Origin: Balanoglossus misakiensis
Lineage: Eukaryota > Animalia > Hemichordata
Assembly: GCA_040954595.2 (NCBI GenBank)
Contig: CM082592.2
Location: forward strand, 5,426,209-5,490,208
Direction: 5' to 3'
DNA length: 64,000 nucleotides
The first letter of the stretch is position 1, and every line of letters begins with the position of its first letter. The notes below the pieces were generated by a model, which saw nothing but the letters and a program-made list of their open reading frames with translations, was not told the DNA's origin and made no database searches. Positions 2,579-57,200 of this stretch are shown here, piece after piece. Position numbers and translations under genes: made by a program.

Positions 2579-4106
2579 ATGAAAACTTTGGTGATCTTCG
2601 TCGCTTGCCTGTTACTGGCCAGTGTACAGTCCGCTCCCACTGAGCCGGGGGCCTCCGAGGTAATCAGAAAATCGTGGTTTCTTCTTAGCGATGATAAGCC
2701 CAGCAGCAGCTTTAAGAGACAGTCTGGTTTTCAGGTGTTGGCATTGTCATCAGAATATCTGCCTGAGTACGCAAGAATTCCATTTTTGGAAATTATCGAA
2801 AGCCACGTACATTCTTGCAATGCAGGCCTATATACAACATTTTGTCCAATAGTGTCACAATTTTACCGAAGTATTTATTAAGCCGCTATTGCAAATTTGG
2901 TATTTTTCTATACTCTCACGTTTTTTCCTTGTCATACTTATTTTGCGCCTCTCACTTTCTGCGTGTGCTATTTTATTTCTGGTGCAGGTTGCTACGTACG
3001 CCGTCAAACTCAAGGCCAAGGGAGTCGTGAAGGAAGAGGCGGTCACTGTTGACGAAGAGAAGAACGTAGAGACGTTCAAAACGGTCGATTCCGACGATGC
3101 AGAGATAGTTCAAGATTTTGACGCGGTGAGCGTCGATAAATTGCAAATTAGACGTCTTTAATAGGGAAGAACCGGTTGATTTCTGGGGGTGGGAGAATTA
3201 TGTATGTCAGGATTTTTTTCTGTTGCCAGGCCTTCTTTTTGTCCAGGCATTGCTGTTGGTCTTCATATGAAATATCTTTCGTTTTCTTGTGCAGGGATTA
3301 GAAGCCGTAGTCCCCAGGTATGGTCCGTGTTACGTGAGGCCATTGAACAGTGATGAGAGCGTCCCACCAAAAGAGTTGAAGGATGACTTAGAAAGCGCTA
3401 AGGTGAGTTATGGAAAAATGAAATGCCCGCTGTATAGTATACTACAAAGTCCGTTTTGTCATGTAGTGTGTAGGTTACACACACGGCTTCGAACTTAAAG
3501 TGAATTTGTTAAAGTCGCTTGCTACCGCTCTACGGTCGACAGGATCTGCCTAACTGAAAATCATGCTCATTTTTCTCCGTATCCAGGACACAACTCCGGT
3601 AGCCGAGGAAAAACCGGATGACTACTACACGCTGGCCGGCACTCCCGTCAAAAATCGCGCTGTCGTCGGTGATACCATCGGAGCAAAGTGTGAAGGCAGA
3701 GACATCTACTGGCTGGCGTCAGTTCCCCACGGAGATGCAAGTAGGTGACATTTTTTAAAACCTTTTTAGTCATTTTTGGAACTGATCTGCTGTGATTACC
3801 CGAGGAAGGGCAACGGTGCATAAAAGTCATTCGTGGGATTTTGGTCCGCAACTTTGTCTACGAACGGTACCTCATGGTTCAACAGGCACTGGAGTTACCC
3901 GTACTTAGCAATACTTGCAATGACATTTTCGCTGCACTCCAACCTATTCCTATTGTGATTATGATAATTATATCATTCTTTTTTAATCATTATAACTCTT
4001 ATCAGGTCGCGATAAACGTGGCTGCTCCTGGTGGAGATACTGCAGGTTTTACCTCATTAACGGAGTTTGGTATTATCGTTGCTGGTTGATCTGGCGTTGC
4101 ACTTAA
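2579..4106 (+). CDS. Secreted BRICHOS-domain precursor (193 aa) with a C-terminal arenicin-like beta-hairpin peptide
   Basis: Exons 2579-2659, 2988-3125, 3295-3402, 3587-3740 and 4006-4106 are all GT-AG and in frame. Signal peptide MKTLVIFVACLLLASVQS; BRICHOS-like core (IVQDFDAGL..GPCYVRPL..IGAKCEGRDIYWL, with the conserved Asp and the Cys pair); furin site RDKR; peptide GCSWWRYCRFYLINGVWYYRCWLIWRCT*. Confidence 0.88.
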
Positions 4107-4642: not shown

Positions 4643-4648
4643 AATAAA
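4643..4648 (+). terminator. Polyadenylation signal AATAAA of the BRICHOS gene
   Basis: AATAAA about 540 nt after the stop codon, followed by a GT-rich tract (gtttgtgtatttg). Confidence 0.55.
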
Positions 4649-4928: not shown

Positions 4929-6620
4929 TCAATCATGTTTGGGAGTAATACTTGTGGATTTCCCAGCACTCCCATCGACATACATGTATGTCTCTGAACC
5001 ATTTCTCACTTGGCCAGAGTTCACCCGTTTCACTGTCCTACCAGCTGCCACAAGAATAAGACAGAACCAGTATGCTTGGAATGCAAAGACGATGAAACAG
5101 CCAATATTGCACTGTACAGGAATGTGTTGGGCTACCTCCCATAAAGTGAGATTCTTAGTCCTGCCGTACACATGGTAAATAAATGGAAACATCAGCAGTC
5201 TACAGCAGAAATACGAAACGATGATGAGCGCTCCATTGATGAGGTACAACTTGGACTTCTCCCAACCGACCTGGAACACAAAAGTCAAAGATACCAGAAA
5301 TGTTATCTGATGTATAGTTACATAGTATACTCGTATGAGACAATCATTATAAAGGTGGTGATTACAGGTACAGATTCTCAATTTTTTTTAATATACAGAG
5401 CAGAATGTCCACTCACCAATTTCAAGACTGTCCTGAGGTAAAGGAAAGGATTCGACATCTCCATTGCATAAAAACACCCAAGAAAGAAATCTCCTTTCCC
5501 ATTGCGCAAGAACTGTAAGAATAAAGCAACAATTACCGCTAGGTTTACAATATAATTTCAGTGATATGTTATGGATATAGTGACAATTGAGCCCAACATA
5601 ATTATTTCGAGTAGTGCTGTTAACGCATGTAAAACAATGAATGTTAGCTGCAAACACAGGAAATTCGCACTGCTGATTTGCATATCGGTCTTACCATAAC
5701 AAACGGGTAGGCAATTGCAGCAATGGCCAGATGGTGTATTACTATCGCTGGGTTATTCTGCATGTAGTCTTTGATTGCACTCGACAAACTCGTGGTTTGT
5801 AAATGGGGTTTCTTGGTGCAGTGCATCACAAACATGGCATACACATCATAGATCATGTAGGGCAATCCGAATGTGGCATATGAATTAGTTAACCAGTGCC
5901 TAAAACAGATACACGTAACTGTTAGTAAATGTACTGTAATTCAAGATTCTTGGTCTGTTATAATTCTTTAATTTATAAAATTTTCACAAAGTTGAAACGG
6001 CTTCAGATTGTGTACTAAATCTGAGAATTGTTTCATTTCATTTTACAAGTCATACAATCAGTACTACATAAAGCCATAATATGTGAGATCATCTGAAACT
6101 AAGACAAGTAGATGTGGCCATATTATCTTACTACATTTAATAACTATACAGAATAACATGTCTACAGTCCCATGACATAGGACACAGTGTAACTGTAGTG
6201 AAAGAACCTACAGTATAGACCAGTGTCTGGTTTTATATTATGATTTTCTACAGCATAAATATACAAAGAAAGATTCATTGTACCTTTGATAAATCAGGTC
6301 ATCTTTGCAATTTGTAGTGATGATCAGACCACAGGTGATAGCCAATGCTGCCTGAACAGCTGACACAGCTCTGTGTGAAAGAAGATGAGAAAAACAAAAC
6401 AAAAAGTAAGTCTAGCTGGACTTCTTTCGAGTTTCATATCAACTCTCAGTTTCTGAGAATAAATTGTAAGTACTCACTTTACTGAAACTGTCACGTTTAT
6501 CACGTTTCCCATATCGACTCCGTAGGTGAAATGCTTCATCCCTTTTCGAAAGAAGTGAAAAAGTCCCGGGAAAAACAAACAGCCGAGAGTAAACAGGAAA
6601 ACATACCACACCGTGCACAT
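4929..6620 (-). CDS. TLCD3: TLC domain-containing protein 3 (FAM57 family; ceramide synthase-like/acyltransferase)
   Basis: Five exons on the minus strand: MCTVWYVFLFTLGCLFFPGLF.. / AVSAVQAALAITCGLII..CKDDLIYQR / HWLTNSYATFGLPYMIYDVYAMF..IHHL / GKGDFFLGCFYAMEMSNPF / LYLING..CRLLMFPFIY..PKHD*. These match TLCD3A/B motifs. The true ATG is at 6620, not the ORF-track start at 6747. Confidence 0.9.
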
Positions 6621-54270: not shown

Positions 54271-57200
54271 ATGGCAAAACCAGTGATATCAGTGACCCCC
54301 TGCAGAGCAATGATGGATGAAGTGGTGTCAATCACTGTAACCCACATGACATACAGTCAACCAATCACGTTACTGGTAACGTTTACAGATGAGAAAAATG
54401 TGACGTGGACTTCATATGGTCACTATAGAGCCAATGAAAGCGGGCATGTTCATGGTACGCAAAGAGAGAAAATCAATTCTTGGTCTCTTCATCACAGTGA
54501 ACTCTTCAGGCTGGTGGATTTTTCTAGAATTAAAATGCTGTATGTCAAACTGTCCATGACCACTGAATAGATTGAAAGTGGAGCCACAACTGAGTCAGCG
54601 TTGCTAAAATGTGATTGGCCAAATGAGACTGAGGCCACAACCATCAGCATCGCAAAACCTGATTGGCCAGTTGAAAGTGACTCACTGGCCAGACTATTTG
54701 TTAAACAATTGCTGATTGGTGAATTAAAAGCGAGCAAAAGCTAAAAATGCAACAAAGAGAGAAGTTGGTTCTTCACACAGCCTATTTTCCCAATGAAAGT
54801 GATTTGATCCAACGTACGTACATGAAATCAGTTGTACAAAACTGAATTTGCACTTTATCTGATTGTCTAGTATTAGATAAGAATTGTGTTGCCCCAAAAC
54901 TAATCCTTTCCAACTTTTCAAACCTTTTAGTTAGAACACAGCCATCGCTTGGAGGCACCTATCGAGGTGTGGAATCCATGGGCCTCTTTTGGAGTCTTAA
55001 GGCTGATGGCGATCACGAACGTCTCCGGTGGAAAGATATCGACAAGCCACTGGTGTTTGATCTGAAGGTCTACCAAGGTTTTCTCCGAGGAGCTCCCGAC
55101 TCTGACCCGGTTGCCATGGCTACCATAGAGAGATGGTACGTGGGACCGCACGTGTCATGGTCGTCATTGGAAGCTGGGAGAATAAGAGGAAAACTCTTTG
55201 TTCCGAATGGTGAGGGTTTTTTTTCATTATCACGAGGTGACGTTTGCTCTAAGTTTGTGTGTTTGTGAATTAGTAGCCAACAGATTATTGGCACAAGTAA
55301 TGGTGGGGGTGGGGGCTTCCAGCCTTGGGAGATATCTTTGCACGGTCAAGGTAACAATGGACTGGTAGTTTTCTGGTCCACTCGATCAAGAGATTCACCC
55401 TTCATAAAAGTCCTTGTGAAGGCATGTGATACATCAGACCTTCTGGGCATTTCCCAGGGCCAGGACCATATCCAGCAATTATCGACATGTACGGAGGCGG
55501 TGGCACCTATGATTACAGAGCTGCCCTGTTGGCATCACATGGATACGTCACTCTCTCTTTGTTACACATGATCTTTGAAGACGTGGGTTTCGAAGGGGCA
55601 GAACTGGATTACTATGAGGTAGTACAAATGTATGTTTTTTGTCCCCTTCTTCTGTGGATCGCTTTGTGCATTATCCCTCTCCATTATTGTAACTTTCAGT
55701 ATACTCTATATCTTACTGCCTCTGGGACAGATTCAGAACCTTTCAACTCTTTGTTATATTGAAGTTTGAGATGGTCAGTCTTTTTGAAATTGATGAAGAA
55801 AACAGGTGTTCACAGTCTTGTTTTTTACCGGTAAAACTCACAACTTGTTTTTGAATTTATTTATTTTTTTGCAGGAAGCCATCGATTATCTAGCCAGTCA
55901 TCCAAAAGTGAATGCAGAGTGTATTTCCATGTACGGTATTTCAGGGGGTGCCCTAAAATGTCTGGAGGTTGCTTCAGAAACAACAAGACAGGTATATAGT
56001 AGAATTTCATTAAGAGACACATTGGCAGGAAACGAACCCCAGGAATATTATTTTCAGGAAGAAAATGAAAATCCTGGCAAATTTTCTGTGATTTCTTAAA
56101 AAATAACAAAATCAATACTGTGAATTATTTTAGACAGATTTTGAATTTCAAGCTATAATTTGCATCTGTGATCTCTGAAAATGCTTGAACTGACTGACTC
56201 CAAAATCCTACTCAACATATGTAGTTATTTTGTAAAGTTGCTTCTTGGTTTCTTAGTGCACGATCACTGTTTTGCATGGGTACTCAACAAAATGAGCAGT
56301 CAGTTTTTGTTTTTGTTTTTTCAGATAAAATGCATTGTTTGCATCAACACAGTGTGCTTCAAATACATAAACCTCTTGATCAAGTCTGTTCCTGTAGTCG
56401 TGTAAGTAACCACTGTATCGTTTCCTGCATTTGTTTAAAAATGTTAATTAATCATTTTCCACAGTCAGAATTTGTGCATGAGTCATAACTTACTATCCAA
56501 TAGTGCCTCACAACTGATCTGGAAAAATACATGAAAGTAAATACATTCCGATTTTCTTTTTCTTTTTCTTTTATTGTACAGGGAAGATTTTGATCACGAC
56601 AGAGACTCGGCTGGGAGTTTAAAACTGGCTAAGCTCTATCATGTAAGTGAGGATGACATCGATGAAGGAGCTGTGATGGAGGTAACTAATGTATAGCTAT
56701 GGTGCATTGTTAAAACCCATTCTGGTTATTGACCCTTCCAACATAATACTGAAGTTGTCTGTCATCTTTCAAAAACTTAACCCTCGTATCTTTTTCCACA
56801 TTTTTTCTCAAATTTTGATCAAGACCTGCAGACAATGGAATATTATGTCCACTTGGTCTAGAATTAAGGGGAAAAATAGGGAAAAATGTGTGAAAATGAT
56901 AAAACATGTTGTATCTAAGTTCTCTCGCTGATGTTGTGTCTTGGTCTACTGGACATACTGGAATTCCCAGTTTTTAACTTACATTTTATATGTATTTGTT
57001 AAGTTGGTCATTACATGCAAAATACAGGTTATTTCTACAAAATAGTGAACAAAAATCAAAAGTTAGACAGCTGTGGTATATTCAAAACAGCCTTCAAGCA
57101 GTTACTTGTCCATGAAATCATTTCTGTGCCAATGGACTTTTATTTACATGGAATACATTTTCTTTTCTGCACAGGTTGACAAAATACAATGTCATTGTCT

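Follow-up and report, generated by a model that had tools for sequence, protein, structure and literature searches.

The closest described systems are the annelid BRICHOS-AMPs, precursors that deliver an antimicrobial peptide (AMP) from behind a BRICHOS domain, among which we compared arenicin-1, arenicin-2, and arenicin-3, alvinellacin, capitellacin, the abarenicins, and HfBRI-25 and HfBRI-29. As laid out in the cited sections of a 2019 review, these precursors consist of a hydrophobic segment, an acidic linker with the BRICHOS domain, a dibasic site, and a C-terminal cationic hairpin closed by nested disulfides, and their range is stated there as polychaetes only (PMC6780910). The last exon of BRICHOS-AMP genes holds the peptide, according to the cited part of PMC5431198, and the legend of Fig. 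S6 in PMC4002450 gives the introns of the alvinellacin gene as all phase 0, except for the last, which is phase 1. The passages on this group in reviews from 2025 to 2026 present only annelid members (PMC13001179, PMC11767717, and PMC12466427). For β-hairpin AMPs at large, the cited sections of Ramtel et al. 2026 (PMC13001179) describe 27 families of 11 to 25 residues, report a bias of Arg over Lys, and demand CD, NMR, or MS evidence for the class, the hairpin presented below being a model. Analogues of arenicin-3 are drug leads, as described in part of PMC9410094.

We examined a gene on the plus strand of the window, the whole 64,000-nucleotide stretch of DNA that was analyzed, which the first-pass annotation had proposed to splice from five exons to a signal-like N terminus, an acidic BRICHOS region, an RDKR site, and a four-Cys peptide. 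The window has the look of animal DNA whose introns are short. The five exons indeed join into a 193-residue open frame with a stop codon, across introns of 328, 169, 184, and 265 bases that are all GT–AG and fall in phases 0, 0, 0, and 1. The coding part of exon 1 (2579–2659) encodes hydrophobic, signal-like residues (1 to ≈18, hydropathy up to 3.5) with a putative cleavage site and the start of the linker, and exon 2 (2988–3125) continues with linker strands and the beginning of the BRICHOS domain, including the conserved Asp D70 (3114–3116). Exon 3 (3295–3402) harbors the first conserved Cys of the domain, C85 (3328–3330), and helix 1, and exon 4 (3587–3740) encodes the C-terminal half of BRICHOS with the second conserved Cys, C144 (3689–3691), and a spacer, ending at a phase-1 donor at 3741. 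The coding part of exon 5 (4006–4106) contains a furin-type RDKR motif (R-X-K-R; 4008–4019) as the putative processing site, the predicted mature 28-residue β-hairpin (4020–4103), and the stop codon. Two further plus-strand pattern matches, a TATA-like box at 2475–2480 (104 bases 5′ of the ATG) and an AATAAA at 4643–4648 (537 bases 3′ of the stop), are a candidate promoter element and a candidate polyadenylation signal, respectively.

The splice product is colinear with all 21 homologues compared, including across the 3740/4006 junction on which the first reading depended, and this junction is thereby supported; the other nearby donor (after 3744, four bases downstream) yields a 164-residue product that lacks the cysteine peptide. 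The best alignment, to P0023 of Ptychodera flava, runs end to end over 196 columns with 60% identity and an E value of 1e-85. With a profile built solely from the homologues, the splice product reaches 260 bits (positions 1 to 192); when the same profile is searched against 2832 frames of the window, the five exon frames are precisely those recovered, with no other frame under an E value of 1. The locus is, as judged from these alignments, an intact five-exon gene, the model of which is confirmed by homology.

An unnamed 70-residue record, P0015, matches exon 4 and diverges where the last intron of the window gene begins, resembling read-through into that intron. Between 260 and 480 bases 5′ of the start codon (≈2098–2322) are a (TTCA)n run and a long (GAT)n run. 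No kappaB-like site is found upstream of the gene, the window as a whole containing nine matches versus 5.35 expected, and no second copy (paralogue) of the BRICHOS gene is present within the window. The supplementary files of PMC12768270, PMC11618098, and PMC10210618 contain no occurrence that would serve as a clue to expression, and large expression tables may still bear on this point. Pfam matches of exon 1 (residues 1–14) to Defensin_propep and of exon 5 to DUF6316 both fell under the cut-off and were dropped.

The window protein is a member of the BRICHOS superfamily as judged from profile matches and from the conserved Asp and two Cys, in keeping with the domain assignment first made by eye. 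On exon 4 alone, Pfam BRICHOS matches positions 58 to 91 at an E value of 0.004 and 17.8 bits, below the cut-off of 25. A phmmer search with exon 4 over 1.84 billion representatives returned 11 matches, one of them at 73%, and nine of these match Pfam BRICHOS, seven above the cut-off and two as fragments; eight of the nine are named proteins of P. flava or Saccoglossus kowalevskii. The remaining two matches, P0017 and P0019, were set aside as repeat-rich proteins that lack BRICHOS. A follow-up profile search added nine further homologues, eight of them from P. flava, and annelid precursors were returned by neither the phmmer search with exon 4 nor the profile search. The family profile matches Bri2 (8RNU) at an E value of 1.7e-11, and D70, C85, and C144 are invariant in all 16 alignment rows, where they align with the Asp and two Cys of Bri2. 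The overall layout also follows that of the superfamily, with an N-terminal hydrophobic segment (a putative cleaved signal), a linker, and a β-prone C-terminal client behind a convertase site.

Residues 26 to 161 contain 29 Asp/Glu versus 16 Lys/Arg, very nearly the hand count of about 30 versus 16 in the first-pass annotation, and the pro-region carries a net charge of −12 with a pI of 4.5. A full-length model of the homologue P0011 (pLDDT 69) retains the hairpin. It superimposes on proSP-C (2YAD; Z 5.8, rmsd 3.2, 71 aligned residues) and Bri2 (8RNU; Z 5.3, rmsd 2.9, 73 aligned residues), middling values that are level with those of LolA and ependymin folds, and a Foldseek search with this model gives E ≈0.1. 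The linker-plus-BRICHOS sheet of P0011 aligns with LolA and ependymin at a middling Z of 5.5 to 6.2 over 103 to 110 residues, possibly a common sheet arrangement. Among the matches listed, the nearest Atlas clusters are cnidarian BRICHOS proteins and gastrokine-2 (0.91), with no annelid cluster; exon 4 alone gives scores up to 0.82.

The 28-mer contains Cys at residues 2, 8, 21, and 27 (spacing 5-12-5), Asn–Gly at residues 14 and 15 (4059–4064), four Arg and no Asp or Glu, and 10 aromatic residues, of which five are Trp, all exactly as counted in the first reading; its net charge is +4, and with two disulfides its monoisotopic mass is 3747.7 Da. Bromination, in steps of +78/+80 Da, is a speculative further possibility: hedistin contains bromotryptophan (cited part of PMC11767717), and halogenated aromatics accumulate in acorn worms. 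AlphaFold2, run in single-sequence mode on the 32-mer encoded by 4008–4103, returns a two-stranded hairpin (strands 6–17 and 20–31) that turns at the Asn–Gly, with a pLDDT of 84 in the best model and 81 to 84 in all five. A single register of this hairpin pairs both sets of Cys, and Trp4 with Trp25 as a Trp–Trp pair, so that the nested disulfides C2–C27 and C8–C21 proposed earlier both fall on one register. The released peptide is thus predicted, on the strength of the model, to fold as a hairpin. Each face of the hairpin presents five aromatic residues, with one Arg on one face and three on the other, and amphipathicity is therefore modest. A pattern comprising a dibasic site, a symmetric four-Cys cationic aromatic peptide, and a stop matches the window at this site only and matches none of 30 simulated windows, a weak control because the pattern was written after the peptide had been seen. 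Among solved structures (PDB), no significant match to a homologous peptide was obtained by sequence or by fold, the fold search with the hairpin reaching capitellacin only at an E value of 4.3. The proposal of a new peptide accordingly stands to the extent that neither an identical nor a homologous one was encountered among the solved structures or in the literature searched.

The window precursor shares with the annelid BRICHOS-AMPs the layout given above (cited sections of PMC6780910), including an anionic pro-region (−12) and a cationic (+4) disulfide-closed C-terminal hairpin, here a predicted one. Compared by phase, its introns follow the alvinellacin pattern in the cited part of PMC4002450, and a phase-1 intron likewise precedes the last exon, which encodes the peptide; the annelid genes have five introns in the portions cited, whereas the window gene has four. 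This phase pattern may be a trait of the whole BRICHOS superfamily. The NGV turn that the first-pass annotation attributed to arenicin-3 does appear for that peptide in Table 4 of PMC6780910 and is shared by the window peptide. In contrast, the sections cited from the same review give the annelid peptides as 21 to 22 residues long, with a Cys spacing of 3-8-3 in arenicin-3 and 3-9-3 in alvinellacin, versus 28 residues and 5-12-5 here, and the window peptide departs from the strict arenicin definition (21 residues, C3–C20 with or without C7–C16). The earlier designation "arenicin-like" therefore holds for the precursor layout and the NGV turn but does not extend to an arenicin proper, given the length, the Cys spacing, and the lack of detectable peptide homology. 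Relative to the annelid BRICHOS-AMPs, the window peptide is also more aromatic and has a deuterostome host, with no peptide homology detected. HfBRI-29, a predicted 29-residue annelid hairpin and putative AMP (cited part of PMC10745061), is comparable in length, set beside the 28-mer here by description rather than by sequence. Within the β-hairpin AMP class as delimited in the cited sections of PMC13001179, the peptide conforms in charge (+1 to +8), in Cys pairs at least three residues apart, and in a preference for Arg over Lys, and falls outside the length of 11 to 25 residues, at 28 for the window peptide and 27 to 30 for the four-Cys peptides of its family.

The host is not a polychaete but an enteropneust hemichordate. 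The guess of a non-annelid lineage made in the first reading holds because the neighboring USP32 gene (window 11233–39129, plus strand, 30 matched pieces), 7 kb from the BRICHOS gene, places the host among the acorn worms: identity over the matched pieces is 79.4% to Ptychodera, 75.9% to Glandiceps, 73.2% to Saccoglossus, and 56 to 64% to six echinoderms. A USP32 tree joins the window to Ptychodera as its sister lineage (99), within the acorn worms (100), although the Ptychodera protein served as anchor for the window row, which may lean toward it. An amphioxus origin was considered and rejected. The neighborhood is likely conserved, since the P. flava accessions for USP32 (XP_070572718-20) and for P0023 and its isoform P0032 (XP_070572722/3) are consecutive, apparently on the same scaffold, and P0023 is likely the positional orthologue of the window gene, judged from accession order. 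This P. flava protein, P0023/P0032, named "arenicin-1-like," has the same RDKR, the end-to-end identity given above, and a near-identical Cys frame of 5-13-5; the window peptide differs from it at 10 of 28 aligned residues, with a loop one residue shorter.

The window gene belongs to an expanded acorn-worm family. P. flava alone accounts for 15 family protein models (models rather than loci, with one further isoform uncounted), of which 11 lie on one scaffold, and S. kowalevskii has further members, uncharacterized BRICHOS proteins. The automatic NCBI names of the 15 P. flava models are arenicin-1-like or arenicin-2-like in eight cases, leukocyte cell-derived chemotaxin 1-like (LECT1-like) in four, and uncharacterized in three. 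A dibasic site occupies the RDKR position in 20 of the 21 homologues, and 15 of the 21 have a four-Cys peptide of 27 to 30 residues, with the 5-12-5 spacing of the window in three, 5-13-5 in nine, and close variants in three; two other homologues have six or eight Cys. The net charge of the family peptides is +3 to +6 in 12 of 20 and −4 to +2 in the other eight, one of which, P0034, looks frameshifted; P0033 nearly duplicates P0024. The Arg:Lys ratio is 61:6 in the peptides versus 115:207 in the pro-regions of 19 related sequences, which are not independent. Richness in Trp and Tyr characterizes the acorn-worm family as a whole, and the earlier description of an unusually Trp-rich, longer member is therefore apt as to length (28 versus the 21 residues of arenicin) but not as to a Trp content peculiar to this copy. 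Several P. flava proteins (P0030, P0031, P0013, and P0014) combine the same BRICHOS carrier with other cargoes, namely six- or eight-Cys peptides of 25 residues and an anionic Val/Ile-rich 36-mer, one member being without a dibasic site.

Outside the cysteines, the tail is 33% identical among 10 full-length members. In five of six pairs, divergence is greater in the mature part than in the prepro part (e.g., 14/28 versus 12/160 differences), and in only two of the six is the mature part more diverged than the flexible linkers. Between the window protein and its orthologue P0023, the peptide shows 10/28 differences versus 65/161 in the rest and is not the more diverged part. The divergence among paralogues fits diversifying selection and also fits gene conversion of the first exons or relaxed constraint. 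The place of the window protein within the family is resolved by neither of two family trees, the first of which omits P0033, P0034, and P0016 and the second also P0036 and P0037.

We modeled the complex of carrier and cargo for the orthologue P0023, as BRICHOS residues 27 to 160 with its own tail, residues 167 to 197, a single chain presented in two pieces with no alignment used. The complex scores 0.79 versus 0.02 for the best of three controls, with runs agreeing in at least 75% of contacts and a partner pLDDT of at least 77; of 78 solved complexes, 51 attain the corresponding mark, as do two of 108 mismatched pairs, a calibration that does not cover peptides. In the model, the hairpin rests against the central sheet, where it pairs with strand 123–128. 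The BRICHOS sheet is thus the predicted docking site of the hairpin, a result that supports binding, and resemblance to known BRICHOS models may account for the pass. According to the cited part of PMC9714404, BRICHOS client tails, which are convertase released and β-prone, are predicted to occupy the face A groove.

With the gene structure, domain order, host lineage, family, and cysteine frame demonstrated, we consider it fairly probable, by analogy with the annelid BRICHOS-AMPs, that the gene encodes a BRICHOS-held, RDKR-released, Arg/Trp/Tyr-rich peptide of 28 residues and two disulfides that kills bacteria by damaging their membranes. As in those annelid systems, the precursor would enter the secretory path, where BRICHOS, docked as predicted, would hold the C-terminal β-hairpin and shield its aggregation-prone aromatic residues, and the acidic pro-region (net −12) would neutralize the +4 charge of the hairpin. 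A furin-type protease would then cut at RDKR and release the free peptide into mucus or coelomic fluid. There, Arg residues would bind anionic bacterial surfaces, Trp and Tyr would insert, and the hairpins would assemble side by side in the membrane, on the annelid precedent. The family expansion, the fixed Cys frame around a variable peptide, and the mostly cationic, Arg-rich tails, all features of sequence, would count for this antibiotic reading. Caution is called for because eight of 20 family peptides are weakly cationic or anionic and because BRICHOS tails that are not antibiotics share these features.

The vertebrate BRICHOS proteins compared here, ITM2B/Bri2, the gastrokines, chondromodulin/LECT1, tenomodulin (TNMD), and BRICD5, have the same domain Asp and two Cys and a convertase-released, β-prone tail. 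The cited sections of PMC2751770 ascribe an acidic BRICHOS with a cationic tail to ITM2 proteins and a tail with four conserved cysteines to LECT1, TNMD, and group C; Bri23, the hairpin of Bri2, is given as having no antimicrobial activity in the text cited from PMC6780910. Charge pairing and a four-Cys tail are thus not diagnostic of an antibiotic. The vertebrate proteins, however, mostly come from single, conserved genes and carry membrane anchors or longer tails, whereas the acorn-worm proteins are multicopy with short, variable, Arg-rich tails, and the strongly conserved or long C-terminal region described for LECT1, TNMD, and BRICD5 (cited part of PMC2751770) has no counterpart in the short, variable acorn-worm tail.

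The aromatic residues on both faces, the neutral and anionic members that keep the same Cys frame, the many copies, which suit bulk output, and the tendency of mature BRICHOS clients to aggregate (as described in the cited part of PMC9714404) would also befit a role in building mucus or the lining of the burrow, as a structural or self-assembling material kept soluble by BRICHOS until secretion and then forming β-sheet fibers or adhesive films, with killing secondary. We regard this as unlikely, given that 12 of 20 members are Arg-rich cations and that the peptides of close paralogues can differ at as many as half of their residues or more, variation that a bulk material does not need. A host signaling or tissue-regulating factor, like the vertebrate chondromodulin or gastrokine products, is quite unlikely: four of the 15 P. 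flava models are named LECT1-like, gastrokine-2 (0.91) belongs to the nearest Atlas clusters, and conservation relative to the orthologue is as high in the window peptide as in the BRICHOS core, but the LECT1-like names are automatic, and receptor ligands are usually conserved, whereas the paralogous peptides vary widely on a fixed frame; the best-conserved vertebrate tails, those of group C, are nearly invariant in the cited sections of PMC2751770.

A silenced or degenerating gene copy seems exceedingly improbable in view of the open frame, canonical splice sites, full set of landmark residues, and TATA-like and AATAAA sites, the likely orthologue in what appears to be the same neighborhood, and relatives that occur as uninterrupted 196-codon frames on contigs of 1.1 to 1.4 kb, as spliced transcripts would. 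Animal venom peptide families likewise combine a conserved prepro region with a last exon that varies around a Cys frame, which would suit a cytolytic or deterrent secretion whose targets are not bacteria but predators, parasites, or fouling eukaryotes. Toxicity to mammalian cells is described for arenicins and nicomicin in the cited parts of PMC9410094 and PMC6265681, yet no toxin family was matched in Pfam, and the characterized invertebrate products of the BRICHOS-AMP precursor type are all antimicrobial in the passages cited (PMC10745061, PMC6780910, and PMC11767717), and we hold such a deterrent to be very unlikely.

In the literature searched (most subscription journals, patents, and AMP databases were outside its scope), we found no report linking BRICHOS or arenicin to hemichordates, none of BRICHOS-AMPs outside annelids, and, by title and start of abstract, none of antimicrobial peptides of the BRICHOS kind in hemichordates or acorn worms. 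The claim of a hidden, undescribed system is borne out in that no published study was found, but eight of the 15 P. flava models are already autonamed arenicin-like; this is apparently a hemichordate BRICHOS precursor family with a longer cysteine frame, half-recognized by automatic annotation and unstudied. A broader antibacterial reading, which we advance tentatively as possible but rather doubtful, would see an expanded, fast-diversifying acorn-worm arsenal of BRICHOS-delivered long hairpin antibiotics, the first AMP family for Hemichordata and the first deuterostome BRICHOS-AMPs. On the same tentative footing, "chaperone plus antibiotic" would be an ancestral bilaterian immune cassette, since the intron pattern is shared with annelids, the tails of gastrokine, chondromodulin, and Bri2 would be later redeployments, and BRICHOS would let a hairpin with aromatic residues on both faces exceed 25 residues. 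The acorn-worm family would move the BRICHOS-AMP system across the protostome–deuterostome split and bears on the ancestral cargo of the BRICHOS chaperone. It would add more than 12 natural variants, with a longer frame and charges from +6 to −4, to the β-hairpin antibiotics, which are rare (27 families in the cited sections of PMC13001179), and would supply natural chaperone–client pairs for BRICHOS binding of aggregation-prone hairpins.

Other genes were noted in the window. Minus-strand genes at ≈43 to 53 kb and 60 to 63 kb, without a Pfam match, we take by eye to resemble a leucine-rich-repeat protein and a SEC14-like protein. An acyl-CoA thioesterase exon (Pfam PF04775) lies at 54846–55265 on the plus strand. 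A TLC-domain gene (Pfam TRAM_LAG1_CLN8; 4929–5940 and onward, minus strand) stands tail to tail with the BRICHOS gene, its last exon ending ≈820 bases from the BRICHOS stop.
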